Positions 13,448-61,728 of a stretch of DNA of 64,000 nt are shown here, piece by piece. Below the pieces are notes generated by a model. The model had not been told where the DNA came from. It saw only the letters and a list, made by a program, of their open reading frames with translations, and made no database searches. Within the stretch, counting starts at the first letter, position 1. Each line of letters begins with the position of its first letter. Source of the DNA: a virus (taxonomy: Duplodnaviria; Heunggongvirae; Uroviricota; Caudoviricetes); IMG/VR virus record IMGVR_UViG_3300028886_000047. One strand, 5' to 3'. A program made the translations under genes and the position numbers.

Positions 13448-13448
13448 T

Positions 13449-16400
13449 ATGAGTTTTACGTGTAGTATTGATATTATTAGTAAAAAATATAATGAATCTT
13501 TAAGTTCGGAAAGTAAGGTAAAAGAAACCTTACTTTCCTTACTAAAAGATGGAGCAAATATTGAAGATATTATTTAGGTAGTAACTGCTCCTAGAAGTAC
13601 GAGAGAATTAAGAAGTTTAGCTCCCTCTAAATTACAACTTATTAAAAAATTCTAGGATGAAAAATTTGTGAGAGACTTTTTAGGGTCAGATAAAAATATT
13701 AATTCTCCTGAAGCAGTTACTACTTAGACAAAAGAATTAGCAATAGATAATCCAGATGCTATAGTTTAGAATGGAAAACGTGCTAGAATATGGCTCAGTG
13801 AATCTTGGGGTGTAGCGTCTTTAGCTTAGAATAAATTTGTACAAGATACTAATAGAGAAATACAAAGTAGAATATTAGGAATGATTAAAACAGCTAATCC
13901 TAATGAGTCTGCTGAGATAGTATTGAATAGAACTATTCAAGAATATTTTAATTATAATTTAAACTAGTTAGCTGAATTTTTTGATAAACAAGGTAAAAAC
14001 GATTATGCCAAAATTATAAGAGATAATATGCCGTTTGATGGAACTAATCCTAATGAAAGAATAAATTATATAATTAAATCTATTTCAGATTATTTTTAGG
14101 ATTATTCTGATTCAGAGAAAATGGCTTATACAGATTCTAAAAATTCCTCTTATGATAAAGCTAGAGCATTTGCTAGATTTTTACTTATATAGCCACTAAA
14201 TTTTGATAACTTTTTAGCATCTAATGTAAATTCTATATAGATTAGAAATAAGGGAAAATTAATGTCTACCATTGATAAATATGGAATTTAGTTAGGTAAA
14301 GGAAGATAGAATATGACTTGGCAAGATGAGGATGCTGTATATTCTATAGCAAAAATGGTTGATGATTTTGTATAGCGAGAAATAGGTAATTGGCCGTTAT
14401 ATCGCAAACAAGGAGACGTGTGGACTAGACAATCTGATGAATATTGTGAAACTAATAAAGTAGTAAGTGTCCTAACAAAAGTAATGCGAATAGCTGACGT
14501 TAAAAATAAAGATTTTACTCCTATTATAAATAATAAATCAAATAAGCCTATAATTGATGATTTAAAAGATACTTTTAGAATTGCTTTTGGAGTAAACATA
14601 GAAACTGGAAAAGAAGTAATAGATGATATTTTTGAGAGATATATTGAAGGCAGAACTATTCCTTAGATAGTAAGAAATATTAATCAAGCTCCTTAGTATT
14701 TATTACCTATAGTGATGTATTTATTAACGGAACAACACAATAGAGCTAAGAAAAGTAAAGCCGAAACTTCTTTTAAAGATGGAATAGTTAGATTGAATGA
14801 TAATGAAGTAAATATATTACATTCAATTTGGAAAAATATGTTTGATCCTTTAAATAATAATTCTCTATATAATCAAGTTTCTCAAAATAGAGATTTCGAT
14901 TTATATTAGATGATTAGTCAAGTATTATTAACTCACGATAAAAAGGAATTATACGGAATAGTTAATGATATGGGAACTATAGAAAAGAAAAACTATTCTT
15001 TAGGAAGGGCTAATCAACGTTTAAATCAATTACAGTCTAAAATTAACGGAGCTTATTCTCCATTATTAAATAAAGGAATTTATAATGTTACTGTAGAAAA
15101 TGATTTTGAAGGCGAAGAACCTAGTACTACAATTACATATAAAGTTCCTATGAAAAAGGATAAATATGTAATTAAAATAATAAAAGGAAAGAAAGCTACT
15201 ATAACTAAAGACGGAATATAGGTATCTGGTAATTTAAGTCAAGTATTATAGGATTTAAAAGGATTTTTTACTGATGTTATTAAAATAAAATTTAATCAAG
15301 GTAATTTATTAGATATTTATCTTAATAAAATAGGAAATGGACAACAGAAAGCGTTAGAAAATTTAGTTGATATTTCAGCAAATTTAATTTATGCAAATGA
15401 AATATCTAAATACCTAAAAGGCGAATCTACAAGCGACTTTAAGAATAAGTTAAAAGAATTTTATGATGCTACTATTAAACGTCCAAATTTAGTAAAAGGC
15501 GTGACTTATAATCAAATCGATGCTTTTTCTGGAAGAATGTTTCCGTTAATTACACAGTTGTCATTAGCTAATGATATTAATGAAGGAATTATTGGAGATA
15601 TTGTAGTCAAAGGAGGAGCTGGAGAATAGATTAATTCAGTAATCTTAAGAACCTTAACCACTCAACTTTCTCAATTTATGGAAGAAAAATCACAAGATCC
15701 AGAAAGTGCTATAAAACATTTTTCTATAAAAGATGTTATTAAAAGAATGACATTTTTAAGAGATTATGTCGATAAAACTGGAGATGTGAAGTCTTCTACT
15801 TCTATGAATGTAGAGGAGTTTTTCTTGAATAATTTTATATATGATTTTTATGGAGACAGTCTTGCTGTACATTTAGGGGTATTATCTGATAAACCTAACA
15901 TTCCTAAGATGGAATTATATGTAGACACTCAAATATTAGTAGGAAATGATGAAGGTGGAAAACAAATAATTAAAAAATTAAAAGATTGTACCTCTGATGA
16001 TTTGAAAAAGATAGCTATTAGAGAACTCGGTTAGTATTATAGAATGATGAAATAGGAGATTGATAGAAATCTTCAAATTCTTAGTAATTATTCTCCTAAA
16101 GGAATTATTTATGATATAAATACTGACTACATTGAAACTAGAGAATATTCTAAAAAAGAATTAGAAAATGATATTCATGAAGCTATATATGCAGCACAGC
16201 AAGCTGGAGAGGATATAGAAATAAATGAATTACTTTATTTTTCTTGGGATAAAGACGGAAACCTTCACACTAAACCTTCTTTAATAGCAGAACTTGCTAA
16301 ACACGACGTTCCTGTAAATAAATTAGGATTAATTACTGAAAACTCTGAATAGTTTTTTACAAGAAAAGAACATGAATTAGTTACTAATTTATTGTAGGAT

Positions 16401-19400
16401 TTAAAACACGGAATTAGCTTTATTGATTCTCAAAGTTAGAAAATTATAGATTCTTCCGCTGTAAAAAGAATGAGGAAAGCTAATGAAAATGGGTGGTCTA
16501 CCAAAAGTAATATTATAATAGGAAAAATTGTTAACGGAAAAGAATCTAGAAATTTAATTACTAAAAAAAGTTTAACTGATTGGAAAGTTTATAAAGATTT
16601 CTTTAAATACGCTCAAGAGTTTGGAGGGTTTAATTTAGATAAACTCAATATTAATGGTAATTTTGATTTTGAGTATTTTTTATAGGCTTTAAATGAAAAT
16701 TATAGTGCTATACAAGAGTATTCTCATCTGCAATCTTTAAAAAGAAAGATTAAAGATGAAATTAAGAAAAAATTATTAAAAACTTCTGAAGGTCTAGATA
16801 AAAAAGCTCTCACTGAACAATATAGACAATGGAGAAAAGAAAATAGGCCTGAAGAAACAGAAATAGAATTAGAACAAGCAGTTTTAAATTACGAAACTGA
16901 ACCTGACGAAAGAATTTGGAGAAGTAGAAATGCTTCTTATAAAACTGAAGGGATAGACAATATAACTTCTATTGATGAAATAGAAAAATTAAAACAAGAA
17001 TATAACTTAACAGATTTTGATACTACTTTAGAAAAGAAAAGTGGTAATTTTTCATTACAAATAAATCCAGAAATATCTAGGTATAATACTTTACATTATT
17101 TATATTCTGAGGAAGGATTAAATAGTACAGTAGGTTCTCATATCAATCATAAAGTTCCTTATACTAAAGATCTAACTTTAATGGGAGCTTTAGAAACAGG
17201 ATAGCAAGCTAAACGTAATGTATCAGAATCGGGTGCTAAAAATCAATACACTAGAAGTGACATTAACGGAATGGACAAAAATATGACAATTGCTGTAATG
17301 CGTGATGTAAAGGCCGGAATTTCTACTATTAATGGTATTCAAAATCCAAAAGGAGCTACTGTAATGGATGGTTCTACTATAGGAAATTATGTAACTAGAA
17401 AAGAAGAATTGTATTCTCTTGGGTCACAAAAAGCTGGAATAGAAAATTCAAAACCTCTTGGAGATGATTTAAATCCTAAAACTGGGACCGGAACTATTAT
17501 CAAAACCGCTGTATTTGTACTTACGAATAGTCGTATAAGAACGTCAGAAGCTAACATCATTCTTCATAAACATATGAACAGTATTCCTTGGAGAAATTTT
17601 GACGGAAACTTTTTAAGAGATTATGATGGAAATAATATTAATTATCATCCAGTAATCGTATTTAAACCTTCTGAAGAAAAATATTATTTAAGAACTGACT
17701 TCTAGATTGAAGAAGATGGAGTAACTTCATTTAAAGAATTAGAATTAGGTAATTAGGAACAAGCAAATAATTTATTAAAAGTTGATGTCGGAGGAATAAC
17801 TATAGGAGCCTTAATTAAAGCAGGAAGAGATTTAACTCCTTATCTTAATACAATTGCTGCAATAACTAAGCCTAAGATTATTGGAAATGTTGATGAAGCA
17901 TTTGATACAATAAGAACTACCAGACCCATTTCTAATAATTATGAATTATGGGATTTATTTGGAGGAGCTTATTCTGCTTCTATAAATGAAATGAACGATA
18001 TATCTTATAAAGACGATAATACTTCTTTAGAGAATCTTACTATAGCAGCTCATTCTTGTGGAACTAGAATAAATAGAGATGTAACTAGGCCATCTAATGA
18101 AGATGTATATTTGCCATTAAAAGAAGCTAAAATTGATTGGGTTGTTACAGAAGGAGCTATTAAACAAGGAGCTTCTAATGTAAATTCTACAGATATGTTA
18201 AAAGATATTAATTATAGAGTGACAACTCAACGTATAGCTACAGCAGATATTGGAATGTAGTTAAATCCTGAACACTTAGCAGACAATTCTCATATTACTC
18301 TTATGACTCAGGTTGTTAATGCTTTAGGTTTAAGAGGATTTAGTTCTGACGCTGCTGATAAAGTTTACAAAGCACTTGCTACTTTAACAGATACTTCATT
18401 AGAAGAATTGTTTAAAGGAATTGAATTGAAAAGAACTACCGGGGACGATAGTTAGTTTAAAGAAGCAGTTTCATCTTTGTTATTGAAATCTATAATAGGA
18501 ACCTCTGAAACCGATGGGGATTTATTATCTTCTATTGTAGTCCAACTTAATAAGCAAGATAGAACTGGACATGATTATGATATAATTAGACATAGACTTC
18601 CTATAAGTGACCCCGCAATTCTTAACAAATTAATAAGTAATTTCTCTTCATTAATGACAAAAGCGGGAGTAAGAATTCAGTTCCCAGGAAGTATGAATGT
18701 ACTTGTGCCCTCTGATGGAATATATAAAATACATGGAGGAAAATTGAGAAGTATAGCTCATACTCAAAGATATGTAGAAAATGACCTTATTCCAAATAAT
18801 GAAGAAATTGCTGAATTACAAGAATTACAAGAACTACAAAGAGAACAAAAACCTCTTAAAGGACTTCATGAAATAACTATAGGAGCTTCTTATTTTGTAA
18901 GAATAACAAATAATCATTTTAATTCTGACAATCCTTTATTATCTACTGTACTTGCAGGAAAATCTATAAAGGTTGATGATTTATCAACATATTATCAATT
19001 AAGAGATTTGTTAAAAGGGACTACTTATACATTAGTTGAAGATGTTATAACTGGAAGAGATTTAGCACCATATAATTGTACATTTAATACTAATAAGGGA
19101 ATGTATATGTTATGGGATTTAGATTCAATTAAACATATACATATGTTAGAAAACAATCCAGAAGAAGTATTAAATATATATAGTACATATACAGATGAAG
19201 AAATAGTTAGAGAATTTCATATTAATCCAGAATACTTAGATAGAACTGATATTAAATCTTTTACAGAATCTTTTAAAAAATTAATTAATAGAAGAAAACA
19301 AATAGAATTAAATTCTATAGGTTCTGGAAATAATAATAGTGTATTTATAGATGGACAAAAAGTATTTATCGATAAATCTACTTTAAAAGTTTCCCCCTAT

Positions 19401-22400
19401 GAATTAATTGCTCCAAAAAATTATAAAACTACTTTTGGATTATAGACTGGAGACAATGTTTAGGAAATATCTTAGAATAAGTTATTCTTCTTAAAAAGAA
19501 TGATTGACAATCAATACAGATTAGAAAACGGGCATTGGGTAGATAGAAATCCAATTTCTTCTGATAAATATGACATTATTCTAAAAACAGTTTCAGGAAA
19601 GTCTTATCCAATATTATATAAGTCTGATACAACTAAAATTCCAGAAGGGTTAAGTGTAATCACAGAATAGGATTTTTATGCAAATCTTGATTGGGATGGC
19701 AGTAAAGTTTACAGATTAAATGGAGATGGTGATAGAATTTATGAATTACCTTATCATAAAGATTCTTCTGGAAAGATAGTTTATGATGCAGAAATACTTG
19801 TCGATGAAAATGGAAATGAAGTTATTTATACTGATAAATTAAATTTCTTTGTAAATAAATTACAATTTAATTATGTTGATTTTGGAAAAAATATATTAAA
19901 TCTACCATTTATTTATGATATATTTAAGCAATTAAGTACTTCTAAGAAAAATTCGGTTAAACAATTATCTTCTAATTATTTATCAGAAATTGAACAATTT
20001 AATCAAGTTTCACGTTTAGAAGATAGAATAAATAATGAAAAAGATGAATAGAAAAAATAGGATTTGAGTACTAGATTAGTATAGATTACTTCTGGTGAAG
20101 AATTTAACAAATAGTTAAAACAACAAATATCTGAAGGATTTAATTTAAGAGATTAGTATTTAACCCAATTAAATACTGAAATTTTAGCTGGAGAAATTAA
20201 AGGAAATTATACTGGAATGTTTGCTCAGATAATTAACTCTGCTATTGAAACACATACATCGTTTATTAAATCTTTAGATTATATTGTTTCTAGAACTCCT
20301 GCACAATCACATCAATCGTTCATGCCTATGAAATTGGTAGCATTTGATGAATCAGATGTTAATAGCGCTTATGTAAGTCGTTATCAATTATATTTGCAAG
20401 GTTCAGACTTTGATGTAGATAAAGCTAGTTTACTTGGAAGTATTATACGAAATGGAAGGTATGTTGTATGGAGTCCCTTTATGAGTTTATAGTCTATAGA
20501 ACATTTAAGAGCTTCTGAAACATTACCATTTCCAACTGGAAAACAATTAGAAATAAGAGAAAGTCTTAATAGTCGTGTATATGATAAAATGGATAAACCT
20601 GTTCATTTAGTTTGGCATGATGATACAAGGATAACTTTTACTTTGCCAAATTTTGAATAGGAAATATATTTAGCAAAGAATCAATCTGGTATATGGGTAT
20701 CTAATTTAACTCAAGATATTATGAGAAATTAGATGACTCCAATGGAGGTATATTTAATTGAAAGAGCTATTACAGATAAAATCTCAGAAGGAGAAATATT
20801 TGACGCTCAATTTAATATAAGTCATTTAGGATTTAATGAAAATCGAGTAAAGGATTCTTCTAAATATTTATATGAAAAGGATTTTGAATAGTTTATAAAT
20901 TGTTTTGCTCCTATATTTGATTATAACGAAAAAGGGCAATTAGAATTTAATAAACTTACTGGAAGAGTAAGGCATATAATTGACAATATTGGCAATGAAC
21001 CACTTCAATATGATACTATATCTTACGAAAATTTAACACAAGATTAGTTAAAATAGAAATAGATTAATAATATAAAACAATTATCTATTTTAATTAATGC
21101 TTTAAATTCCTTTGGATAGATTCCAAAAGTAATGTCTAATGATTTAATGACAGCAATTTATAAAACTGTTAATGAACATAATTTATATTTTGTTAATTCT
21201 TTTGATACTAAAGACGCTGTAGTTAATTACATTAGTAGTAACATGTTTTAGATTTCTAGTGATCCAGTAAATTTAGTACAAGCTATGACTTCTGTGGATT
21301 AGCAGACTGATTATGTGAAAGAAGAAATTGCAAATAAGTCTCCGTTAGCTGAACAATCTAAACATTTTGATAAAGGAAATATAATGTCAATATTTAGATT
21401 ATTAAGATTAACCTTATCTGGAAAACAAAATACAGGTATAGAAGCATCTTCATTGAAAGTTATGGAAGCTATCAATCAATATTAGGATGTTATTCTTAAT
21501 TATGGTTCAGACGAAGAACAAAAATCATTAATCAAACCTATAAATATAGGAGGCTATAATATAGGATTAATATGTAATGCTTATTGTAAAAATATAGCAA
21601 ATATTAAATCTAAAGAAGTATATGACGCATTACAAGAAATCGATAATGATAATGACCAAGCTATATGGTTATCAGCATTCTTAAGTCTTAGTACTGACAA
21701 CGCTAAGGATCCTACTCTTGCTAAAATAAATGCTAATCCAGAAATGATTGGACTTTATAATTCCGGATTTGTGTTAGGATTGCCTATAAGTTTTTTATCT
21801 AAAATAATAATGTCTCCTACAGGAATGGCTATTGCCGATGTTCAATAGGGGGATATATTTCTGGGTTATAATAGTTCCAGAGATATAGGAAGAGTTATAA
21901 ATTATATTAAAGAAGGTCCTAGACTCAGTCCTAATATGACTACATTAGAAATATTAGGAAAAGCTATTCAACTACATAATCCCGGAGAAGTTACTATTTT
22001 TAATCTAAATAAACAACTTATTAGAAATTACTGGGATTAGTCTTAGTTATTAACAGCAAGAAGAATTATTGCATTAGCCAAAAGTCTTGCTTATGGTAAA
22101 GAAGGAGAAAAAATAGAATATAATATCCCTACTATTGAATCTAGATTATCTAGAGATATCTAGGTAACAAGACGAAGAATTTCTGGAATTAGTAAAGCTT
22201 TAGAAGCTAAGAAATAGCAAATAATTGAAAAAGATACCTTAGGAAGAAAACATAAAAAACTTGATGAAGATGTTACTGCATTAACAGCGTCTTTAGAAGA
22301 ATTGAATACAAAACTTACTGAATTACAAGATATTAAAAATGAATATAAAATAACTCAAACTATTCCTCAAAGTAGAAATGAAGGAGATTAGTATGATTTA

Positions 22401-24323
22401 TATGAAAAATACCTTGAAAATTATAATTCTATTAAAGATGGAGAACAGTCTGATTCTTTGAAAAAATTATTTTAGGATAATAAAGAATATATACAGAATT
22501 CTTCTAACTTCAAAAAGACTATTTAGGATATTGAAAACTGGTTAGATACTATTGAATAGGTTCAAATGGATGAAGGATACACAGATGCTGAAGGAAATAA
22601 ATATAGCACTGTAAAAATATTAGAATAGTTAAATGAATTTGCTTCGGAAATGTCCTTAATACGTCCAAATCTCAGCCTCAATCAACAACTTCCTAATTCT
22701 AAAGAAAATCAACTTTCATTTATTAAAAAATTTGAAAATATGATAAATGATAGAATTACCTTAGGAAAAGTTGAGAATGCAAGTAAAATCAATGAAATAT
22801 AGGATTTCAAAGACTTTAACGAGCGTAAAGGGATTGAGGGATTAAATATTTCTATATCTGAATTTGTATGGGATGAAGAATATAGAAATGCTGCAATAAG
22901 AGCATACGATTCTATTAAATTTAAAGTGAATGCTTTAGATGTACTAGTCAAAGTGCCTCATTATTTTGGATATTTAAAAGCTTGTGATGCTTTATATCAG
23001 TCATTAGCTTATCAGTCAGTACAATATAGAGAACAAGACAGAATCTTAAGTAAAATAATCATAGGAGATTTAAAAATAAAAGCATCCAAAGATATTTAGT
23101 CAAGATTGAAAGTTGCTTCTAGGTATATTTCTAGACAAATGAATAATATGTTCTTATTAGAACAAAATATAGAATTAACTATTCCTAAAATAACTGATGG
23201 TAAAGTTGATACTTCTGTAAAAGTTCCAATTAAATTAGGTACAAAAGAAGGAAATGAAGCGTTCAAAGAATGGATGGATTTTGTAATTATTCCTCAGTAG
23301 AAATCTAAGTATAAATCTAATAGATTTTTAAATGAACTTTCAGAGGCGGCTTATCATAAATCTGATAATCATAATACAATTATAAATTATACTACTAACA
23401 TAGATAGTATGACAAATAACCCTACCGAAGTTACAAAATTTGCTGAAATAACTGAGGGATTTAATAATTTGCAATCTAAAACTATAGGAGATTTGCCGTT
23501 AGTAGAAGCTTTCTTTTATTATGATTTAATAGCTTATGATAGATAGCCAGGTCAGTTATCATTAACTCCGATTTTTAATAAATTAGTAGCATTAGGGAAA
23601 ACTAAAGTTATTTCCGATTATGTTCAATTTGTATCAGACTTGGATTAGGGAGGCAATATTATTTTAACTTTAGATGAAAGTTAGATAGATGAAATTAAGA
23701 GATTTATAGCTCCTGTTATTTCCATTTATGCTTTAGATGAATTTGATGAAGAATATGGGTGGGTAAAAGATCCAGAAGACTAGCAATTTTATCTTATAAA
23801 GAGAAATCCTAAGCCTAAAAATAATAAAAACGATGATTTTGGCGCAATGGACGATCCTAATATTGATAATCCAGAAATAGATATTGAAGGAATAGGTCCT
23901 GATGGTGATATTAATTAGGAAGAAAATCCTGAAAATCCTCAATATTAGCAAATTACCTTGAGTTCTAAATTAGCAGAACTTGAATGGGAGCCTGGAGTTC
24001 GTAAATTCGAAAGAATTACAGATTCTGGAAATTTAAATAGCCCTTATATTGAAAATTTTATAGTTCAAGAACAACAAACGTTATTAGAAGGACAGGGAAT
24101 AATTACACCTAAAGAAATAAGATTCGGAAATGATTCAATTACATTAGATGATGGAAAACCTAATATTCCAGATAATATCAGAAAGAGATTACAAGAAATT
24201 ACTGGACAAAATAACATAGATGATTTAATAGTAACTAAAGTTATAGTTGAAGGCTCTTCTAGAGAAACTGTAATTGATATAGATACTACGAAAGGAAATT
24301 TAGAAAACCCGTGTAAAGGATGA
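13449..24323 (+). CDS. giant late-module protein (3624 codons), TAG-recoded, unknown function
   Basis: ATG 13449 lies 1 nt after the previous TAA. Frame 3 is open to the TGA at 24321-24323. I checked codon by codon across 20460-22060 and 13446-14700 and every interruption is TAG. Track frame-3 ORFs 14418, 14712, 14910, 15678, 16470, 17271, 17991, 18477, 20217, 23106 and 23958 are fragments. Confidence 0.55.
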
Positions 24324-30282: not shown

Positions 30283-30324
30283 AAAAAAAAAATAAAGGAA
30301 GAATGATATTCATTCTTCCTTTTT
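30283..30324. terminator. bidirectional intrinsic terminator: A-run, perfect 10-bp inverted repeat ggaagaatga/tcattcttcc (30297-30319), T-run
   Basis: Seen directly. The hairpin is flanked by aaaaaaaaaataaa upstream and ttttt downstream. It sits between convergent genes ending at 30257 (+) and 30310 (-). Confidence 0.6.
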
Positions 30325-31020
30325 CCATATATATTTTCCAGCTGTTTTATATTTTCCTTTACAACATAATGAAATACTAGATTGAGAAATTCCCGTAATA
30401 CTACTAGCTTCTGAAATAGATTTATAATTTTTTAAGAAATTTCCAGTTAAGTCGTATTGTTTTACATTATAAGTATTATATTTATTTGCTTTTTCTAAAA
30501 CATTTTTTAAAGTATCTCCTTCTAATAGAGCATAACTCCAAATATAATTTTTATATTTTGTACGTTCTCCATTCAAAACTCTATATATCTTTGATGGATT
30601 AAATCCATCAATTGATGCCTAATTAGCATTATTCCATTCTTTTATAAAATTTCCTTTTAAATCATACTAATATACTTTTTTTCTAATAATATTTTTCTTA
30701 TCATTTACATTATCAGGATTAAACTCTTTTACCCAATCTTTTAAATCTCCTATATCTATTTTATATTTTGAAAATATTCTTAATACTTCCGGATTTTTCT
30801 AAAATAATTCTCTACTTATTTTAAAATTTTTACATAAAGTATGTAATTCTTTTTCAATAATTTTATCTTCTTTTTCCTAATCCAATGTAGTTTTAGGATT
30901 AACTATTAAATTAACTAACTAAACATTTTCTCTTGCGTTTTTAAATGAAGAAAATCTTTTATAAATATTAGAAGTGATTCCAATTTTATAACAAGTCTAA
31001 AAATCAAATAAATAAATCAT
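30310..31020 (-). CDS. T5orf172 (GIY-YIG-like) domain plus two NUMOD1 DNA-binding repeats; homing-endonuclease-like; requires TAG readthrough (5 in-frame TAG)
   Basis: ATG at 31020-31018. N-terminus MIYLFDFQTCYKIGITSNIYKRF matches the T5orf172 pattern. Two repeats Y(Q/TAG)YDLxGNF(I/L)K and ISEASSITGIS match NUMOD1. In-frame TAGs at 30619, 30667, 30799, 30877, 30919 and 30997. The track shows only the 3' fragment 30310..30576. Confidence 0.6.
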
Positions 31021-39683: not shown

Positions 39684-40244
39684 TTATTCAGTTAATTTTG
39701 TACGATATTCTTTTAATGTCGTTAAAAACAAATTAGTATCTGTGAAACCACAAGATTTAAACTCTGGACAGAATCCTCGATATATACAATTAGGAATACA
39801 AGCATTAGCAAGTTCAGGTTCTATTTTTCTAAGTTCAAAGATTACTTCATTCCAGATTTTTCTTGTTTCACTTTCTGCTTTATTACAAAGCCTTGCCTTT
39901 GAGATATTAATAATTTCTTGTGCATTTAAAAATAATCTCATATTTACAGGGTCAGTTTTTTTTTGTTCTTCTCTTGGAATCTGCTTCCCATCTATGTCTG
40001 GACGTGAAGTACTTACGAAAGGTTGTGAATGTACATGTCGAACGAGATGTACTGACACATAATTTGGAATGTCATAAAAATCTATATTGAACATTAAACA
40101 TCTCAAAGGAGAATGTTCTGCTTTAATAATATTCTTTTTAAATTCAACTGAAGGTTCTTTATCAAGAAGCTCTTTTCTCTGTGTAAATCTAGCTGCATTA
40201 AGAACGTCTTTCCAAGAAGTTACTTTTGTTATTTCAATTCTCAT
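39684..40244 (-). CDS. possible divergent ThyX-like (flavin-dependent thymidylate synthase) protein
   Basis: N-terminal ...NAARFTQ and RHVHSQPFVSTSR resemble the ThyX AARv... and RHR-x7-SxR motifs. The match is weak and the protein is short (186 aa). Confidence 0.3.
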   Translation of the reverse strand: MRIEITKVTSWKDVLNAARFTQRKELLDKEPSVEFKKNIIKAEHSPLRCLMFNIDFYDIPNYVSVHLVRHVHSQPFVSTSRPDIDGKQIPREEQKKTDPVNMRLFLNAQEIINISKARLCNKAESETRKIWNEVIFELRKIEPELANACIPNCIYRGFCPEFKSCGFTDTNLFLTTLKEYRTKLTE

Positions 40245-40521
40245 CCTTTATAACTCTAATTATACAATTTTGTCCATAAAGAGACCCTTCTATACAACAA
40301 CACTTTTTGGAAGGAGAACAATAATGAGTCCAAAATTCAAAATCATCATCTTTTTTCCATCCAGCTTCATCCAAACAATTAGAAAAAAGATTCCAAGATA
40401 TATTTGGACCTAAATCTATTTCATCCTCTTCTCCAGAATCTATGTCATGTAAAGCATTCATTATTGCTGATTTCATATATTTTTCAGCATTTTCTATATC
40501 TGTTTTAATATATTTATTCAT
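40234..40521 (-). CDS. hypothetical protein
   Basis: Track ORF. Its ATG overlaps the TGA of the HNH gene. Confidence 0.4.
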   Translation of the reverse strand: MNKYIKTDIENAEKYMKSAIMNALHDIDSGEEDEIDLGPNISWNLFSNCLDEAGWKKDDDFEFWTHYCSPSKKCCCIEGSLYGQNCIIRVIKDEN

Positions 40522-41240
40522 TTATTTAAATATTTACTTAAATTTTTAACTAAAAGAGAAAGTTCTTCTAAAGTTGCATTATTTTTTAATGTGTTTGCTC
40601 TTTTAGAAATAACCCATACATTTCCTTTAATATAACCTTTAGTAGAATCTATTCTATCTATAGAATAAGAATTATCCTAAGCACTTCCATAATGTGAATC
40701 TAATGGTATTTCTAATAATGGACATGTCTCTGGCAAAGTTATATCAGATGGTTCAATATTAAAATCTAAATTTTTATTCTAAGCTCGCTATTTGGCAGAT
40801 CTTATTAACTACTTAATTAAACTTTCTTTATTTAAATGCCTAGTTTCAATATTTTTTAAATTTTCCTAAGCCCTATATTCATCGTTTAATCTTTTTTCTC
40901 TTCTTGCCAATTTTCTCTACTCATTTCTTTTTCCATCTGATTCATATTTTTCTTTACAACATTCCTTGCACATAGCTCTATATCCGTATTTTCCTGATTT
41001 CATTTTATGAAATTCACTAAACGGTTTAAATTCTCCACAATGTGTACAAGTTCTTCCAGTAATTCCTTCATTTGGATCTAAAGTCTATTTATATTTTACA
41101 ATTAGACCATAATCTGTTAGTATCTTTGATACTGTATGTCTATCTAAATTTACTTTTTCTCCTATTTTAGTTAAAGATAAATTCTACTCTTTATATAAAG
41201 ATATTATTTCCTATATTAATTTATTATTTATTTCTTTCAT
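40518..41240 (-). CDS. HNH (HNH_3/I-HmuI-like) homing endonuclease with N-terminal HTH and zinc-binding cysteines; TAG-recoded (8 in-frame TAG)
   Basis: ATG 41240-41238 to TGA 40520-40518. With TAG read as Q: ...ETCPLLEIPLDSHYGSAQDNSYSIDRIDSTKGYIKGNVWVISKRANTLKNN matches HNH_3. All three stop codons break this region in the track, leaving a 740-bp gap with no ORF. CTHCGEFKPF...MCKECC cysteine cluster. Confidence 0.65.
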
Positions 41241-41263
41241 TTTTTATAAAACTTAGTTTAGTA

Positions 41264-41923
41264 TCAATGCACCCAGAAGGTAGGCAATTCCCCATTAGGT
41301 AGTCTTGAAATATCTGCAGAAAGAAGCACTCTAGTACAGAACGGCTTAGCTCCTTTCTCCATACATTGTCGGAGTACTGATGCTACTTCTTCTGCAATAG
41401 AATCAGGAGCTTCTACATTCCATTCATCATGACATTGCAGACATATTAAAACTTTATTTTGATAATTATTTTTTAATATCCATTTAAAGAATAATATGCC
41501 TGACAATTTTGTTGCCATTGCTCCTCTATTTTGTATTCTGTAATTAATAGAATCTTTTTGAATATCTGTTTTAAATTTATTCCATTGTCCTAGCCAATAC
41601 ACTTCTTTACTATAAGGGTCATCACTTTTCATACTTTGATATGCTTCCCACCATCCAGGTTGACTTGTAAAATCTCTAATAGCTTTCCATTTATTGTCCC
41701 AATCTTCTATATGTGCTCTATGTCCAGTTACTGGATTCATTAAAATATATCCACGTTTTATTACCTCTTTACGACAATAATCTTGATATTTTTTAACTCC
41801 AGGGAAACCTTTCATATAAGAATCATAAATTTCTTTAGCTTCCTTTGGGTCTAGGCCATTGTTTTGTACCATAGTGGAATCATTTCCTCCGTAATTTATT
41901 GCGACAAATAGATATAACAACAA
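41264..41923 (-). CDS. polA: family A DNA polymerase, C-terminal part (rest of motif B AINYGG, motif C LQCHDEW)
   Basis: ...FVAINYGGNDSTM continues motif B, which is broken at the end of ORF 43034..44710. HDE motif C is present. Confidence 0.7.
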   Translation of the reverse strand: MLLYLFVAINYGGNDSTMVQNNGLDPKEAKEIYDSYMKGFPGVKKYQDYCRKEVIKRGYILMNPVTGHRAHIEDWDNKWKAIRDFTSQPGWWEAYQSMKSDDPYSKEVYWLGQWNKFKTDIQKDSINYRIQNRGAMATKLSGILFFKWILKNNYQNKVLICLQCHDEWNVEAPDSIAEEVASVLRQCMEKGAKPFCTRVLLSADISRLPNGELPTFWVH

Positions 41924-43045
41924 AATATCTATCGGACTATCTCATAACCATATACTTATAAGTACTTAGGTCCGGAATGCTTAAACTGGTTATTAAGAGA
42001 CTAAATCTCTCCAGTAGTCTCTGCACCTCTCGAAGTTGTATCTTCGATTTGGCTCATGGTTGGCCCTGACACTGCTTTCCATGAATTCGTTCCGTTTGCA
42101 TAAGAGAGTTTCCAACTCTTAGGAGCTCGTTTTAAATAAATACCTTTATATGGTGTTCCATCAGTACAATGATTAGCTATTTTACTTGGGTCCAATGTTT
42201 TTCTACCATTAGACCTTAATTTTAAAGGTAAATCATTATATTCCGATTTACTATATTCCACTAAATCTGATGTACACCAAAAAGTATTTAGCCAGTTTTT
42301 ATTTATATCATATACAACAATATATGCTGACCTATCTTTTATTTTTTGAGCATTATTCATATGTACTGCTTTCATAGCAGCACTTACTCCATTTTTTTTA
42401 GGCTTACGCATATTTTTCGTTTGTTCTTCGGTCATTTTTATTCCTTTATTCCAGGCTTTCATGCCTTTATAATAACCTCTTTTTTCGGAATATTCTTTAA
42501 TAAATTGTTCGTATTCTTCCGGAGAAAGTTCCTCTTTTTTCTTTCTCCACCATTCTTTATGTGTTATAGAACTTTTTTCACAAGAAGAAATATTTAACAT
42601 TGGAGAAAAATTTGGATTTGGATTTTCATTATAACCATTATTATAACTATCAAACTTTTCTATATAAAAAGCTTCTCTATCCAATAAAATATTTTTATCT
42701 TCTATTATCTCCAATATTTCACAAACAAAACAATCAGTTCCGAACTCATTCCAATCTTGTTGTAATGATTTACAATGATGTTTTTGTGTCTTTAATTTTG
42801 ACACATGTTGTTTAAATCTTGACATAAATGATTTCCAAGTACTTCCAACATATACCATATTGTTTTTAGTATTGTAAATCCTATAAATGCCTTTTAATTT
42901 TAAATTGTCAATTTCTTCTGATTTAATTTTTACTTTCATAATATTTTTATTTTAATTCCAAATAAAAATATTAATTTAAGGCATAAAACAAAAGGCATTT
43001 ATATTTAATTTATGTTAAAATTTGTTTTGTCATTTACTCAATGGA
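41924..43045 (-). mobile_element. insertion interrupting polA at motif B: putative group I intron (or free-standing HEG cassette) carrying a GIY-YIG endonuclease
   Basis: Exon 1 reads ...YRQAAK then stops after SIE. Exon 2 resumes ...AINYGG. A 312-aa GIY-YIG ORF with its own start lies between, with ~80-90 nt untranslated flanks. Confidence 0.45.
42001..42939 (-). CDS. GIY-YIG homing endonuclease (standard code)
   Basis: N-terminal KGIYRIYNTKNNMVYVGSTWKSFMSRFKQH is the GIY-(x10)-YVG motif. It sits inside polA. Confidence 0.7.
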   Translation of the reverse strand: MKVKIKSEEIDNLKLKGIYRIYNTKNNMVYVGSTWKSFMSRFKQHVSKLKTQKHHCKSLQQDWNEFGTDCFVCEILEIIEDKNILLDREAFYIEKFDSYNNGYNENPNPNFSPMLNISSCEKSSITHKEWWRKKKEELSPEEYEQFIKEYSEKRGYYKGMKAWNKGIKMTEEQTKNMRKPKKNGVSAAMKAVHMNNAQKIKDRSAYIVVYDINKNWLNTFWCTSDLVEYSKSEYNDLPLKLRSNGRKTLDPSKIANHCTDGTPYKGIYLKRAPKSWKLSYANGTNSWKAVSGPTMSQIEDTTSRGAETTGEI

Positions 43046-44710
43046 TTTGGCAGCTTGTCTGTATTGTTTATATTTTTTAGGTATTTCAGATATAGGAGTA
43101 TCTCTTGGAATTGCTTTTGGGTATGACATGTAAGCTACTAACGCATGCATATCAGCACATTCTCCAGGATCGTATATATGTAACATAGCAGCATCATTAG
43201 CTACAGATGCTAGAACACGACTTTCTTGCGATTGAAAATCTTCTGAAATCCATTTATTACCTTTTTCAGATATAAAACAAGCTCTAGTCTCAGCTTTTCT
43301 TGGAATTTGTTGACAATTTACTCCAGACTCTCCTCCCCCACTACTTAATCTAGCTGTAGCGGTACCTAGTTGATGAAAATCGGCATGTATTCTACCTGTT
43401 ACTGGATTAATTGCCTTTAACCAATTTTCTCCAAAAGAATCACAAACTTTAGAAGCTTCTTTGAATTTTACATAAGCATCAGCTAGTTCTGGACATACAT
43501 TTCGCTGAGATTTAATGGTATCAGAATCAGTAGACTTTTTCTTTTGTTTAGTCTTTTTATCAAAGGTATCAAGTTTAAACCCCAATAATTCAAAAAATGG
43601 AATTGTTTGTTTTGGACTTTTCCAATTTATGTTACAAAATGGAGTTGGATCAAATTCTTGAAACAAATCCATCTGTAAATTTTGTTCTATATAAGGAAAA
43701 GGAACTTCAACTTCTTCGCAATAAAGAGTTCCTACATCTTCTATGCCAGAATCTCTGGTATAATACTTTTTAAATTTTTTGGCTGGCGGAAATAATTTTA
43801 TATTATATTTTTTAAGGTCTTCTTCATCATGAAGCCATTGCGTATCTAAAACGTGTTCTACAACTATTGTTTTAAACCTAATATTTCCTTGATGTTCATT
43901 AAAATATTTAAGAACAAAATCATTTAATTTTTTAGAGGCTTCTTTTTGCTTGTCCTTATCCTTAGCCATTTTAGCTTTCCACTTTTCTACGTCAAGTTTA
44001 ACTCCACAAAATTCTATATAAGCAAGGACTTTAACAAATTCGTTTTCTAAATCTACTGCTTTTTGAAGTTCCTCTCTATCAATATCCTTTTGTTGAGATT
44101 CCTTAATGTCTTCCAGATACATTACATCTGTGGCAGCATACTGCACAACTTCTGGAGTTAATCCAACTGTTTTAATTCGACCTCTGACAGTTTTATCTAG
44201 TTCTATTCCCAGTCTGTTTTTTCCAACAGCTTTTAAAGAGCAACTAATTTCATAATAAGGTTCTTTAGTTTGTTTATTTTCTTTTTGCAAATATGGAAAT
44301 GAATATCCTTCATTAACATACTCACGTGGAGGAATAGGCCTACGACTATATCCAAGCCAAATTAACTGTTCAGCTAACATAGTATCATATACATGTTTAG
44401 GCCATATATCATAGTAATATAAATATTTTAAATCAAAAGCTGCGTTATGAAATATAAATAAACGTTCTGACTCAAAAAATTCTTTAAAAAGTTTTATAGA
44501 ATAAGAGGACTGATCAAATACATATTGATTTTCTTTATTTCCTAGTTGATAACATAATAAAGGCTTAGTATAGACATCTAATCCCATTGTTTCAGTATCA
44601 ACCTGAATGACTTCTAGTTTTTCTAATGCTTCTTTGGCTTCATCAAAAGAAATTTCCTTATATAAATCAGTTTCAAAGAGTTGCTTTTGATTACTTATAA
44701 GAAATATCAT
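43034..44710 (-). CDS. polA: family A DNA polymerase, N-terminal part: 3'-5' exonuclease (Exo I VDTET, Exo II NAAFD, Exo III YAATD) plus palm with motif A DFQSQESRVLA and start of motif B RQAAK
   Basis: Motifs seen directly in the translation. Confidence 0.8.
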   Translation of the reverse strand: MIFLISNQKQLFETDLYKEISFDEAKEALEKLEVIQVDTETMGLDVYTKPLLCYQLGNKENQYVFDQSSYSIKLFKEFFESERLFIFHNAAFDLKYLYYYDIWPKHVYDTMLAEQLIWLGYSRRPIPPREYVNEGYSFPYLQKENKQTKEPYYEISCSLKAVGKNRLGIELDKTVRGRIKTVGLTPEVVQYAATDVMYLEDIKESQQKDIDREELQKAVDLENEFVKVLAYIEFCGVKLDVEKWKAKMAKDKDKQKEASKKLNDFVLKYFNEHQGNIRFKTIVVEHVLDTQWLHDEEDLKKYNIKLFPPAKKFKKYYTRDSGIEDVGTLYCEEVEVPFPYIEQNLQMDLFQEFDPTPFCNINWKSPKQTIPFFELLGFKLDTFDKKTKQKKKSTDSDTIKSQRNVCPELADAYVKFKEASKVCDSFGENWLKAINPVTGRIHADFHQLGTATARLSSGGGESGVNCQQIPRKAETRACFISEKGNKWISEDFQSQESRVLASVANDAAMLHIYDPGECADMHALVAYMSYPKAIPRDTPISEIPKKYKQYRQAAKSIE

Positions 44711-45057
44711 TTCATTAAGTCTAAATTTCTAATAATAGTTATCTTTGGTGTCCACAGTTCGCCAATTTCTCCTTTGTTGCATCCAAATCCTATGTATTTA
44801 ATATCGGGAAAATAGTTAAATAAATAACTTGTAACCATTGTAGTGCAGTTTGGGGTTTCATAATCACCTTGATAAAGTTGAACATGGGAACCAGGCCAGT
44901 AATATCCGCGAATTGACCACAACCAGTTGAATCCGTATTTCTTTGAAAGAAACACATGCATATCTTTTCTATCAGCACTACTAGGAGTGGAAACATGTAA
45001 ATCATCTCCTTCTAACCAAATAGGTATTCTCTTTTCTAAAAATTCTTGTTCAGTCAT
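44707..45057 (-). CDS. hypothetical protein
   Basis: Track ORF. Confidence 0.4.
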   Translation of the reverse strand: MTEQEFLEKRIPIWLEGDDLHVSTPSSADRKDMHVFLSKKYGFNWLWSIRGYYWPGSHVQLYQGDYETPNCTTMVTSYLFNYFPDIKYIGFGCNKGEIGELWTPKITIIRNLDLMK

Positions 45058-56030: not shown

Positions 56031-57140
56031 TTATAAATTTTCAAAAAAATTATTTAATATATTATTAATTTTTTCTTGAGTATTATATTCATAAGATATT
56101 TCTAACAATTTAATTTTATTATTATTACAATAATCTCTTATATACTAATCTCTTTTCTACTAATGTTCAAAAGCTATCTATCCTCCACTAAATCCCATAG
56201 GAATATAATGTTGCTATCCATTATATTCAATAGCTAAATTATATTTTGGAATATAGAAATCTATTTTAGCTACTCCAGACTTATTTATTGATTTATCTAT
56301 ATCTATAATATAATTTCTTTCAAATTCTATATTATTATTTACAAAATAAGTCCTTATAAACTTTTCTCCGTGAGATTCGGAACATTTAAGACAACCTTGT
56401 TCTTGTCCATTTATATGATTATTAGGTTTCATCCAAAATTCTCCGTGTTCTGGGCATATAATACACACTTTAGTATGATTATTTATATAATTAACTTTAC
56501 TATAATCATATTTATTACCATGAATTTTATTTGCTTTGTCAATAAATGTTTCAGTTGTTAATTTATTATTTCCAGCACATTTTGGACAACCACACCCCTA
56601 AACGTGATCTCTTGGTTTTTGTTCGAATTCTCCATGTGTGGGACAAATAATTTTTATAGGAGTAAAAACTCCTTTATAATTTACTAAAGAATAATCATAT
56701 TTATCTCCGTGGACTTTTCTAGCCTTTTCTATAAAGTCGTTATTATTTGATACTTTATTTGCACATTTAGGACATCCCTATCCATTCAAATGAGAATAAG
56801 CTTTTTGTTGAAATTCTCCATGTTCGGGACATATTATAACAATATCATTATGTGCTCCAGTATATTTAGACTTAGAATAATCATATTTGTTCCCGTGAAT
56901 TTTTATAGCTTTTTCTATCCACTATTCTGTAGTTATTTTAATTGATTTTGCACATTTTGGACATCCTTGTCCGCGTTTATGTACATAAGCCTTTTGTTCA
57001 AAATCTCCGTGAATAGGACAAGTTATGGTTATTTTTGTCTAGGAATTTATATAATTTGTCTTACTATAATCATATTTATTATTGTGTTTCTATTTACAAA
57101 TTTCTATAAATTCTTCATTAGTTAATTTATTTTTAATCAT
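56031..57140 (-). CDS. homing-endonuclease-like protein: four tandem zinc-ribbon repeats plus C-terminal Vsr/DUF559-like (EDxHD-family-like) nuclease domain; TAG-recoded (~11 in-frame TAG)
   Basis: ATG 57140-57138 to TAA 56033-56031. Four ~50-aa repeats of [E.FIEKA.KIHGNKYDYS...IICPEHGEF.QK..H.NGQGCPKC]. C-terminus IDFYIPKYNLAIEYNGQQHY fits the DF...IE.DG..H Vsr-like pattern. The track shows only 56214..56468. Confidence 0.6.
56390..57128 (-). repeat. four tandem ~150-nt coding repeats (zinc-ribbon units) within the recoded HEG
   Basis: Repeat units aligned by eye. TAG occupies positions where sister repeats have CAA (Gln). Confidence 0.55.
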
Positions 57141-60807: not shown

Positions 60808-61728
60808 TTAATATACAGTGAATATTCTATTTAAATAAGGTTTATTTTGTTTTGATATTTTAGTAATAGAACTTCGTACATTTGAAATATTTGCGTTGGT
60901 TAATCCTTCATCAATTAATACTTGTGCACAGGCTTTTACAGATTTAAATTTTCCAAGTTCATTTCCATCTAAATCATACATTATTACTTTAATTTTATCA
61001 TATGGATAAATATAAGTATCAATAGTACGACCTTTATATAAAAAATGAAAATCCTTAGCAGTTTTTGAAAAATCTTTAAGGCATTTACTCATTCTAGATC
61101 TATCTATAAATAATTTTTGACACGCGTCTAAAGCTGTTTTCCATTCTTTTATAAAATATCCATCTGAAGAATACTGCAAAACTGGAGTACTAATAGTATT
61201 TTTATTATGTTTATTTACTTCTATTTTTTCAGGAGAATCTTTAGTCCATTTTATAAATGTATATTCTTTTAATAATTTTAAGTTGCTAGTTACACATTGC
61301 ATTATTCTACTAGGTAGAACATCAAAATCTTTAGCAGCTTCGGCATAAGAAGCATAATCTTTATATAAATTCCCATCAGAATCAAAACATCTTAATGCTA
61401 CATATGTCATATTTAATACTTTTTTTTCTAATTTTTTATATTTAAAAACATATTGAGCTTCTTTAATTCTAGCTTCTTCACTATTTTTTATGCCTGATTC
61501 TAATATAGTCATTTCTATATTTCTCCAATTATCTAATACCCATTTATGTTTTTCTTCGTTTTTTGAAGTATTATTAACAGATTCTTCAAAATGTTTAAAT
61601 AATCTTTGTATTACATAATTACTATTAGTAATTCCAACATAAACAGTTTCTGGAGTATCCTTACAAGTTAATAAATAAACAGAATATTCCCCATTTTCAT
61701 TTTTAATTGTTTCTAATTTATTTTCCAT
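60808..61728 (-). CDS. GIY-YIG homing endonuclease with three C-terminal NUMOD/IENR-like DNA-binding repeats (standard code)
   Basis: YSVYLLTCKDTPETVYVGITNS...RLFKH. Repeated ...GxFKSxxEAAKxxxIxxSxIxxC... units. Confidence 0.6.
   Translation of the reverse strand: MENKLETIKNENGEYSVYLLTCKDTPETVYVGITNSNYVIQRLFKHFEESVNNTSKNEEKHKWVLDNWRNIEMTILESGIKNSEEARIKEAQYVFKYKKLEKKVLNMTYVALRCFDSDGNLYKDYASYAEAAKDFDVLPSRIMQCVTSNLKLLKEYTFIKWTKDSPEKIEVNKHNKNTISTPVLQYSSDGYFIKEWKTALDACQKLFIDRSRMSKCLKDFSKTAKDFHFLYKGRTIDTYIYPYDKIKVIMYDLDGNELGKFKSVKACAQVLIDEGLTNANISNVRSSITKISKQNKPYLNRIFTVY

Follow-up and report, generated by a model that had tools for sequence, protein, structure and literature searches.

The 64,000-nt stretch of DNA analyzed here (the window), from a crAss-like gut phage, carries on its minus strand a functional, TAG-recoded gene for a PacI-type nuclease. 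This ORF (40518..41240) lies just 3' of the gene for a family A DNA polymerase (polA), is under purifying selection, and is neither a gap nor a pseudogene. Its product has a helix-turn-helix (HTH) domain at the N-terminus, a PacI-type beta-beta-alpha-metal (His-Me finger) nuclease domain at the C-terminus, and a Cys4 zinc ribbon between them, and comparison with related genomes indicates that the gene behaves as a free-standing mobile homing-endonuclease cassette. The best explanation for the locus, and one that we consider probable, is a free-standing crAss-like phage homing-endonuclease gene placed just 3' of polA, with expression gated by TAG.

A preliminary description of this DNA had called the interval between 40522 and 41263 free of ORFs of 60 aa or more, and under the standard code the sole ORF of at least 30 aa found there encodes 32 aa on the plus strand. 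It had also proposed a 240-codon minus-strand frame, and this frame indeed runs from an ATG at 41240 to a TGA at 40520-40518 with 9 in-frame TAG and no TAA, versus 7-20 TAA in each of the other five frames of the locus. The chance of 239 codons without TAA or TGA at the local composition (45% A, 30% T) is ~9e-10, and 0 of 20,000 shuffles were free of both codons over that length. No start earlier than the ATG at 41240 is possible, since the frame is closed by a TAA two codons before it. The nine TAG span 40677..41213 and are the only Gln-type codons of the ORF, which contains neither CAA nor CAG. They occupy codons 10 (41213-41211), 19 (41186-41184), 52 (41087-41085), 108 (40919-40917), 125 (40868-40866), 144 (40811-40809), 151 (40790-40788), 154 (40781-40779), and 188 (40679-40677).

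Upstream on the same strand, the C-terminal fragment of polA (41264..41923; PF00476, 3.8e-18) is encoded in the standard code. Overlaps of the ATGA/TGAATG kind had been proposed for both ends of the nuclease ORF; the one at the stop is present, where the ATG (40521-40519) of a downstream 95-aa standard-code gene (40234..40521, minus strand) overlaps the nuclease TGA to form ATGA, while at the start the polA TGA (41266-41264) is separated from the nuclease ATG by a 23-nt spacer (41241..41263, minus strand). No family match was found for the 95-aa gene, and this right-hand position is occupied by a different gene in each cassette-bearing genome. Scans around the nuclease ORF found no terminators, and a sigma-70 scan gave 14 promoter-like sites where 13.0 +/- 3.2 were expected, which is background for a model that covers neither Bacteroidota nor phage promoters. 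An identical 240-aa protein (P0001) is present in a public ENA-derived protein catalogue, and over 20.7 kb its source contig of 117.6 kb (ENA ERZ27256887, k141_1258196; 117,654 bp) shows 4 base differences from the window.

Nine standard-code stops in frame, in a module that otherwise uses the standard code, could mean that the TAGs are genuine stops in a decaying endonuclease remnant. Copies of this gene can decay, since in the near-identical copy of the related genome L003 the frame is broken near codon 15 by the insertion of 1 nt. Against decay in the window, TAG is the sole interruption over 239 codons that lack TAA and TGA in a genome of 29% GC (p ~1e-9), and dN/dS is ~0.10 relative to the copy in another related genome, L015 (dS 0.57), and 0.10 relative to L003. 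The TAG positions are themselves conserved: L015 retains 7 of 9 and L003 9 of 9. Additional frameshifts, which the preliminary description had named as the mark of a dead gene, are absent: standard-code homologues of 238 aa align over the full length with none required. The structure model is confident across the whole length, and giant plus-strand ORFs of the same genome hold 189 TAG codons of their own. On the selection and stop-codon statistics we reject a dead pseudogene, which we regard as very improbable.

Codon usage in the window is sharply divided. TAG makes up 9/9 of the Gln-type codons in the nuclease ORF, 189/516 (37%) in the plus-strand genes, and 0/220 in 29 early genes. The excess of the nuclease ORF over the plus strand is significant (Fisher p = 1.4e-4). 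All 189 plus-strand TAG fall in frame within six ORFs, and with TAG counted as sense the stop-to-stop frames of at least 100 codons on the two strands total 70.5 kb instead of 48 kb. We label the plus-strand block "late" on the basis of genome organisation and its giant ORFs. A PHROG scan of three of its proteins found no match, a homologue search with a Q-substituted protein returned only two partial relatives, and relatives of the 1629-aa protein in the phage collection are unannotated and only 24-29% identical, too distant for a test of the identity of the TAG residue.

That test depends on a few informative sites, namely a codon swap in L015 and the repeats of a second nuclease-like ORF (56031-57140). 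Codon 151 is TAG in the window and CAA in the 88% identical L015 copy, and it corresponds to the conserved Q of an AKQRA motif in most standard-code homologues. In the 56031-57140 ORF, likewise, one copy of the repeat motif GQGCPKC has CAA where another copy has TAG. The majority of TAG positions are variable, with K, R, D, or L in homologues. According to PMC9523058, code 15 has been demonstrated by proteomics in crAss-like phages, and we infer that TAG is read as Gln in this genome as well. No suppressor tRNA, or tRNA of any kind, was detected in the 64-kb window or in the ~8 kb beyond its end (L016/L017). Standard-code homologues of the nuclease occur in phages that use TAG stops and recoded copies only in phages that avoid them; by this split, the code of the nuclease gene tracks that of its host genome.

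As the preliminary description had supposed, the recoded gene has company in the early module, being one of three recoded nuclease ORFs there in an otherwise standard-code region. One of the others (30310..31020, minus strand) is nuclease-like with T5orf172/MUG113 and NUMOD1 domains and has TAG at 6/8 of its Gln codons. The other (56031..57140, minus strand), with TAG at 10/19, encodes four DUF723 zinc-ribbon repeats and a C-terminal homing-nuclease-like domain and matches phrog_559 at 1e-85 and phrog_9084, "homing endonuclease," at 1e-23. Pooling the three ORFs gives 25/36 TAG versus 189/516 on the plus strand (p = 1.2e-4). Recoding is no general rule for homing genes here, since two GIY-YIG homing-type ORFs of the same module (42001-42939 and 60808-61728) contain no internal TAG.

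The 240-aa protein is predicted by AlphaFold with a mean pLDDT of 91.8. The HTH-like N-terminus and Cys cluster recognized at the outset are both present: a three-helix HTH DNA-binding domain spans residues 6-43 (41112..41225, minus strand), and a zinc-ribbon-like CxxC...CxxC element (C65, C68, C91, C94) spans residues 62-95 (40956..41057, minus strand), with short strands in the model at residues 62-64, 71-73, 77-79, and 87-91. The Cys columns of the ribbon are invariant or at least 90% conserved in the family alignment. The conserved nuclease core occupies residues 160-220 (40581..40763, minus strand) and consists of F160, D166, C173-P174, S193-x-D195-R196-I197-D, K201-G202-Y203, G206-N207, S212, A215-N216, and K219, a PacI-type DR/GY/N/N motif that lacks the catalytic His. 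Across 85 homologues D195, G202, Y203, N207, and N216 are invariant. In the model the core forms two strands followed by a helix, a metal finger that resembles a solved member of the His-Me finger superfamily, as in the PacI-like group.

Database profiles place the protein among nucleases by a different route from the one first proposed. The preliminary description saw a textbook HNH_3 core and suggested a Pfam search for HNH_3 and AP2; no Pfam-A nuclease family (HNH_3, HNH, Endonuclease_7) or AP2 matches the protein even at E <= 1, and the same holds for 27 C-terminal domains of the family. NCBIfam likewise contains no matching nuclease model, and whole-protein searches of Pfam, NCBIfam, and PDB sequences returned weak HTH matches and no nuclease family. 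At the profile level, membership in HNH_3 (PF13392) or a link to AP2 is not supported. The missing Pfam HNH match, which had been held in advance to count against the whole identification, is outweighed by PHROG, fold, and motif evidence for the His-Me finger superfamily. PHROG "endonuclease" families that match are phrog_3322 at 1.8e-34 and phrog_1035 at 2.2e-33, and a profile of the C-terminal domain searched against PDB finds PacI as its sole match, with DR..GY..N..N aligned at a marginal E = 0.29.

Jablonska et al. (2017; PMC5714182) assign PacI (PDB 3LDY/3M7K) to "group 20" of the His-Me fingers, a mainly viral group with an attached HTH-like domain. The PacI mechanism uses a Tyr in place of His, with an Asp and an Asn binding the metal (PMC5714182, PMC4081073). 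PacI and the phage protein share the pattern D-R-x-D-S-x-x-G-Y-(3)-N-(8)-N-x-x-K, both having a loop Tyr and no catalytic His, and the invariant Y203 falls at the position of the PacI catalytic Tyr. By analogy, the metal ion would be bound by D195 and N216, and Y203 would replace the catalytic His. The two proteins differ in architecture and role. At 142 aa, PacI is a restriction enzyme of bacterial origin whose core is surrounded by two Cys4 zinc sites, whereas the phage protein, the product of a mobile gene, has one conserved CxxC...CxxC set in a separate upstream ribbon plus a lone conserved C173; the Cys pair beside the PacI helix is replaced by Ser/Ala (VISKRAN versus LACFICN in PacI).

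The protein also shares its superfamily fold and a phage homing lifestyle with HNH_3 (PF13392) and I-HmuI-type enzymes, but it matches neither PF13392 nor other Pfam HNH models and lacks their catalytic His. A further resemblance is to T4 Srd (PHROG 1400 / 4592) in the C-terminal DR..GY..N..N segment, where phrog_1400 matches at 5.9e-10 over residues 187-233 and tblastn finds hundreds of matches in T4-like phages. The Srd match is confined to ~50 C-terminal residues, and Srd has no HTH, zinc ribbon, or link to polA. T4 Srd is known for stimulating RNase E and as a sigma-like decoy, as its PHROG labels also state, and not as a DNase.

Mobility of the gene is evident from genomes that lack it, a comparison that the preliminary description had recommended. 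Segment 557-1272 of L015, which separates the polA stop from the following ATG, has no counterpart in L010, giving a precise pair of filled and empty sites in flanks that are 89% and 73-77% identical, and the L014 site is likewise empty. The nuclease copy in L003 is ~95% identical over 41260-40515 in flanks that are about 72-78% identical; polA in L003 is 64-90% identical to that of the window, and the sequences downstream of the nuclease stop are unrelated. The nearest polA relatives found, L014 (70-78% aa identity) and L010 (63-68%), both lack the nuclease gene. Together with the filled and empty sites and the 95% identical copy, this absence from close relatives bears out the original proposal of a homing gene as far as cassette behavior is concerned. 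Megablast of the locus against phage genomes gave a single 49-bp match inside the conserved nuclease core, so there is no close relative in that collection. Nuclease identity in distant phages is 44-54%, versus 26-43% for the polA C-terminus. The constant upstream neighbor of the family is polA: in 9 of 10 homologue contexts examined in other phages the gene immediately follows the polA 3' end or is lodged within it (the exception is cr56_1), and in two phages it sits inside polA and splits it. No group I intron was found around polA in the window or in cr116_1 with Rfam at E <= 0.1.

The 3' end of polA itself differs between filled and empty alleles. In the window the last six codons and stop (41264..41282, minus strand) read TACCTTCTGGGTGCATTGA, encoding ..T-F-W-V-H*. 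Across five genomes, the three close cassette-bearing ones all have a tail of ACCTT(C/T)TGGGTGCATTGA, versus ATTATTGGATACATTAA in the empty-site relatives L010 and L014; the filled allele type is ...ACCTTCTGGGTGCATTGAT... and the empty type ...GATTATTGGATACATTAAT.... L015 is identical to L010 as far as this tract, at which it switches. From these alignments the variant tail appears to travel with the cassette and to mark the left edge of a converted or inserted tract, which makes 41264..41282 a candidate homing-site region. The cleavage target would lie at or near the polA 3' end.

The locus resembles the free-standing Seg and Mob genes of T4-like phages (e.g., SegB, PMC2330249) in that an intergenic nuclease gene adjoins a conserved gene, is present or absent among related phages, and is transferred with flanking sequence, here the polA tail. 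Seg enzymes are GIY-YIG and Mob enzymes classical HNH nucleases, and for these systems cleavage and preferential inheritance have been proven by experiment, whereas we infer both for the polA-linked nuclease. The same adjacency could be read as function rather than homing, with the protein a domesticated, polA-linked accessory or regulatory DNA-binding protein whose His-Me finger is catalytically altered, as in T4 Srd or the Smad MH1 domain. His-less His-Me fingers limited to DNA binding do exist (PMC5714182), the family lacks the canonical His, Srd-type families are among its PHROG matches, purifying selection is strong, and adjacency to polA persists between phages with such divergent polymerases. 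Domestication is difficult to reconcile, however, with an exact presence/absence polymorphism that leaves the empty site intact, with the gene's absence from the closest polA relatives, or with a 95% identical copy in a ~72% identical background with another downstream neighbor. Two phages have their polA split by the gene, as happens with homing genes, and the residue types of PacI catalysis (Asp, Tyr, Asn) are invariant. We therefore regard a domesticated protein as improbable, though less so than a dead gene.

Under the homing interpretation, during a mixed infection a polA allele without the cassette would be cut by the nuclease at or near the 3' end of the gene, and recombinational repair from the cassette-bearing genome would copy ~740 bp comprising the ORF and the last six polA codons. 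The gene lies amid standard-code early genes, has TAG at every Gln codon, and possesses neither promoter nor terminator signals of its own. As long as the host reads TAG as stop, translation of the nuclease would halt at codon 10; full-length protein would be made only after the phage has begun to read TAG as Gln, as the virion-type genes of the plus strand require. It is thus likely that no nuclease appears until TAG is decoded late in infection, and expression would be confined to that phase. A similar proposal was made by Borges et al. (bioRxiv 10.1101/2021.08.26.457843), in which in-frame stops would delay an intron endonuclease of TGA-recoded "Agate" phages until late infection. The Agate phage nuclease likewise is of homing type, lies in the early standard-code part of its genome, and favors the reassigned stop codon. 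It differs in that TGA is read as Trp, the gene is encoded by a group I intron within an early gene, and the phage belongs to a different clade, while in the polA-linked nuclease gene TAG would be read as Gln; this gene is free-standing in a crAss-like phage, is recoded at 100% of its Gln codons, and encodes another nuclease fold class.

A live homing endonuclease need not owe its TAG codons to timing. They could be a historical or mutational by-product in a gene that has long resided in TAG-recoded phages or moved among them, with TAG unopposed because the gene is dispensable early. The restriction of recoded copies to phages that avoid TAG stops would fit such a history, as would the placement of most TAG at variable sites and the two unrecoded GIY-YIG ORFs of the same module. 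It accounts less well for the degree of recoding: both the 9/9 of the nuclease ORF and the 25/36 of the pooled ORFs exceed the 37% of the plus-strand genes, the apparent equilibrium of the genome; CAA to TAG requires two steps; and 7 of 9 TAG have been kept at dS 0.57. On balance we think a by-product rather unlikely, if well short of improbable. A bolder reading, slightly easier to entertain but still less likely than not, holds jointly that TAG saturation is a selected switch and that the PacI-like His-less family is a major unrecognized class of homing nucleases with one polA-specialized clade. The switch would keep a selfish nuclease silent while few genome copies replicate and release it only late, in the presence of many copies and of any genomes that co-infect the cell, and one clade of the family would have specialized on the polA 3' end in crAss-like phages.

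The nuclease locus is a good example of an already described phenomenon rather than a new kind of system, and it does not overturn current understanding. In practical terms, standard-code gene callers miss 740 bp here and two further places in the same module, so dual-code calling is needed even in the "standard" half of recoded phages. The PacI-like family to which the protein belongs is very large (>50,000 representatives after clustering at 50% identity) and mostly viral, its nuclease domain has no Pfam model, and its members may be sequence-specific nucleases useful as tools. For the phage itself, the locus offers a clean natural case in which a reassigned stop codon would lock a mobile nuclease gene, and its all-TAG Gln codons, mapped empty site, and co-traveling piece of polA make the published timing hypothesis testable.

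Under the standard code, the only ORF of at least 30 aa between 40522 and 41263 is 32 aa long. On the minus strand, a frame of 240 codons extends from the ATG at 41240 to the TGA at 40520-40518 and contains nine TAG codons (codons 10, 19, 52, 108, 125, 144, 151, 154, and 188) and no TAA, versus 7-20 TAA in each of the other five frames. Base composition gives a probability of ~9e-10 for 239 codons free of TAA and TGA, and such a frame appeared in 0 of 20,000 shuffles. This agrees with the preliminary description, in which the gap was read as one continuous TAG-recoded gene. Overlaps with the neighbors had been proposed for both ends; the stop does overlap the start codon of the downstream gene (ATGA, 40521-40518), but the polA stop at 41266-41264 is followed by a 23-nt spacer before the nuclease ATG, with no overlap at the start.

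A pseudogene reading of this frame was rejected on the basis of its substitution pattern, TAG retention, homolog alignment, and predicted structure. With TAG taken as Gln, dN/dS is 0.10 both against the copy in the relative L015 (dS 0.57) and against that in L003; these are the two other copies of the gene, at 87.6% and ~95% nucleotide identity, and they keep 7 of 9 and 9 of 9 TAG positions, respectively. Standard-code homologs (236-243 aa) can be aligned over their full length with the nuclease without frameshifts, and an AlphaFold model from 85 sequences has a mean pLDDT of 91.8. The public protein collection already contains a 100% identical 240-aa protein, P0001, encoded on an ENA contig of 117.6 kb that shows 4 base differences from the window over 20.7 kb. 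The L003 copy carries one extra T in a T-run at ~7740-7760 (aligned to window ~41200) that shifts the frame after about codon 14-15, and this 1-nt insertion may mean that the copy is decaying or may stem from an assembly error.

The encoded protein had been described as carrying a textbook HNH_3 core, an assignment that failed: Pfam returned only HTH matches for the protein, all below threshold, and no nuclease model for 27 C-terminal domains of the family. NCBIfam gave nothing relevant. PHROGs matches were strong to phrog_3322 "endonuclease" (1.8e-34) and phrog_1035 "endonuclease VII" (2.2e-33), and weaker to HNH and T4 Srd families. In the AlphaFold model, a three-helix HTH (residues 6-43) is followed by four short strands bearing C65, C68, C91, and C94 (residues 62-91), long helices (residues 92-155), and a strand pair (residues 191-196 and 208-212) that leads into a helix. 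A profile of the C-terminal domain matched a single PDB entry, PacI, at E = 0.29, with an exact motif alignment between the family and PacI (IDRIDSTKGYIKGNVWVISKRANTLKNN / VDRSDSFEGYSPQNARLACFICNRIKSN). PacI is a His-Me finger enzyme without the catalytic His, in which a loop Tyr is used and Asp and Asn bind the metal (PMC5714182, PMC4081073). Given the motif match and the invariance of D195, G202, Y203, N207, and N216 in the nuclease family, we assign the C-terminal domain to the PacI-like group within the His-Me finger superfamily; the similarity is remote and the activity putative. The local Cys ligands of PacI, in contrast, are not kept here.

Relatives of this protein are very numerous, with 50,807 representatives of 50%-identity clusters at E <= 1e-3, a number that falls to 8,296 at E <= 1e-30, yet no Pfam-A model matches the nuclease domain of the family. 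Entries of the family in BFVD are mostly "uncharacterized protein" from tailed phages and giant viruses. Many members of this HTH/zinc-ribbon/PacI-like family carry two domain copies.

The window has a GC content of 28.7%, and taking TAG as sense raises the total length of stop-to-stop frames of at least 100 codons on both strands from 48 to 70.5 kb. The plus-strand block consists of six ORFs (37-30257) with 189 TAG in all. Two of these are giant ORFs at 4727-24323, of 2906 aa with 52 TAG and 3635 aa with 68 TAG; three plus-strand proteins neighboring them had no match in a PHROG search. From the dual-code literature and the giant ORFs, we infer that this block is "late". Products of the minus-strand block (30310-63301) include PolA, ribonucleotide reductase, ligase, a sigma-like factor, a Thy1-like protein, and others of this kind. 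Internal TAG is absent from its real genes, the few listed falling in spurious N-terminal extensions, and its early genes end in TAA 17 times, TGA 19 times, and TAG once. Since these genes avoid TAG even as a stop, the avoidance reaches the standard-code half of the genome. The best annotated relatives of PolA are Crassvirales, at ~40-44% amino acid identity, and RefSeq crAss-like phages hold homologs of the nuclease annotated "endonuclease", which makes this a divergent crAss-like phage whose genome is dual-coded in a way already described. One of the three plus-strand proteins without a PHROG match, of 1629 aa, has relatives in deposited phage genomes at only 24-29% identity; this crAss-like lineage is poorly sampled.

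All Gln-type codons of the nuclease gene are TAG (9 TAG, 0 CAA, 0 CAG), compared with 37% in the plus-strand genes (189 TAG, 285 CAA, 42 CAG) and 0% in 29 early genes (0 TAG, 168 CAA, 52 CAG); the excess over the plus-strand genes is significant (Fisher p = 1.4e-4). Two further recoded nuclease-type ORFs lie in the early module on the minus strand. One, at 30310-31020, is T5orf172/MUG113- and NUMOD1-like, with TAG at 6 of 8 Gln codons, and lies at the border of the plus- and minus-strand modules. The other, at 56031-57140 (369 aa, TAG at 10 of 19 Gln codons), combines four DUF723 zinc-ribbon repeats with a homing-nuclease-like domain at its C-terminus (phrog_559, phrog_9084). Pooled, the three use TAG at 25 of 36 positions (p = 1.2e-4 versus plus-strand genes). 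In phages with standard-code homologs of the nuclease, TAG terminates 2-4 of ~11-17 ORFs, and recoded copies occur in phages that avoid this stop.

Limited but consistent comparisons suggest that TAG is read as Gln. Codon 151 is TAG in the window, CAA in L015, and the conserved Q of AKQRA in standard-code homologs, and the GQGCPKC motif, repeated in 56031-57140, is written with CAA in one of its repeats and with TAG in a different one. Proteomics supports code 15 in crAss-like phages (PMC9523058). No suppressor tRNA was found in the window or ~8 kb beyond it.

Compared with L003, the cassette stands out as a foreign block: identity is ~70-72% across the bulk of the module and 64-90% within the last fragment of polA, rises abruptly to ~95% between about 41260 and 40515, and drops to noise directly past the stop. 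L015 and L010, a relative without the gene, form a filled/empty site pair: L015 1-556 matches L010 6068-6622 at 89%, L015 from 1273 on matches L010 from 6602 on at 73-77%, and the ~720 bases between are the nuclease ORF. Comparison with a genome lacking the insertion, as the preliminary description had suggested, defines the empty site, at the polA 3' end. In L010 an ATG stands one base past the polA stop, and the gene that it opens is the one found downstream of the cassette in L015. Up to the sixth codon from the polA end, L015 and L010 have the same sequence; there the tail switches from that of the empty relatives, ATTATTGGATACATTAA, encoding (D/N)-Y-W-I-H, to the tail common to L015, the window, and L003, ACCTT(C/T)TGGGTGCATTGA, encoding T-F-W-V-H. 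The transferred unit therefore takes in the polA tail, which suggests a candidate cleavage site there.

The nearest polA relatives found in IMG/VR, L014 and L010, are without the gene, and in more distant phages the nuclease is 44-54% conserved versus 26-43% for the PolA C-terminus. The gene lies directly after polA in L002 (the window's own genome), L003, L004, L008, L009, and L015, close to the 3' end of polA but separated from it by another homing-type ORF in L005 and L018, inside polA ~75-90 codons before its end in cr116_1 (L007) and L020, and away from polA in cr56_1. That this is a live, mobile gene for a PacI-like nuclease is well supported.

Other homing-type elements lie nearby. The polA gene (41264-44782, minus strand) is split into an N-terminal part (43034-44782) and a C-terminal part (41264-41923) by a standard-code GIY-YIG ORF (42001-42939) without internal TAG, the break falling in the conserved KSI..NYGG motif; polA is uninterrupted in L014 and L010. 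An Rfam search for a group I intron at the split found none, and the interruption may reflect either an intron or a split gene. Among early-module ORFs of at least 90 aa, the GIY-YIG ORF alone ends in TAG (41998-42000). A TAA follows 15 codons later, so its protein would gain a short C-terminal extension after a code switch, and the publicly available call of this gene is the read-through form, of 327 aa. A 306-aa standard-code ORF at 60808-61728 (minus strand; 10577-11497 in L016/L017, contigs of the same lineage), with no internal TAG, a weak GIY-YIG and a faint NUMOD1 match in Pfam, and no PHROG match, is likely another unrecoded homing-type gene. These two near-identical contigs also differ by a 285-aa NUMOD1 ORF (L017 4590-5447, missing from L016), which adds one more homing-type gene with a presence/absence polymorphism.

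A scan for promoters and terminators around the nuclease gene gave no signal of its own above background, and since the gene is packed between early genes it is probably transcribed together with them. As long as TAG acts as a stop, translation of its mRNA would break off at codon 10; after the phage begins to decode TAG, the full-length nuclease could be made. Borges et al. (bioRxiv 10.1101/2021.08.26.457843) put forward the same timing idea for Agate phages, in which a TGA-recoded endonuclease is encoded by an intron of an early gene. TAG saturation could instead have arisen as a by-product while the gene resided for long in recoded genomes, a view favored by the unrecoded GIY-YIG ORFs of the early module. 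Against it, the TAG share of the nuclease gene exceeds that of the plus-strand genes, and TAG is retained at dS 0.57. We regard a timing function for the saturation as about evenly balanced.

The nuclease resembles PacI at the level of fold, the free-standing Seg and Mob genes of T4 in lifestyle, and the recoded Agate endonuclease in coding. Already known are the protein's prediction in a public catalogue, its "endonuclease" relatives in RefSeq crAss-like genomes, and the published regulatory idea. What is new is a nuclease gene with every Gln codon written as TAG, a defined empty site with a polA tail that travels with the cassette, and the assignment to the PacI type of a very large family for which Pfam has no model.
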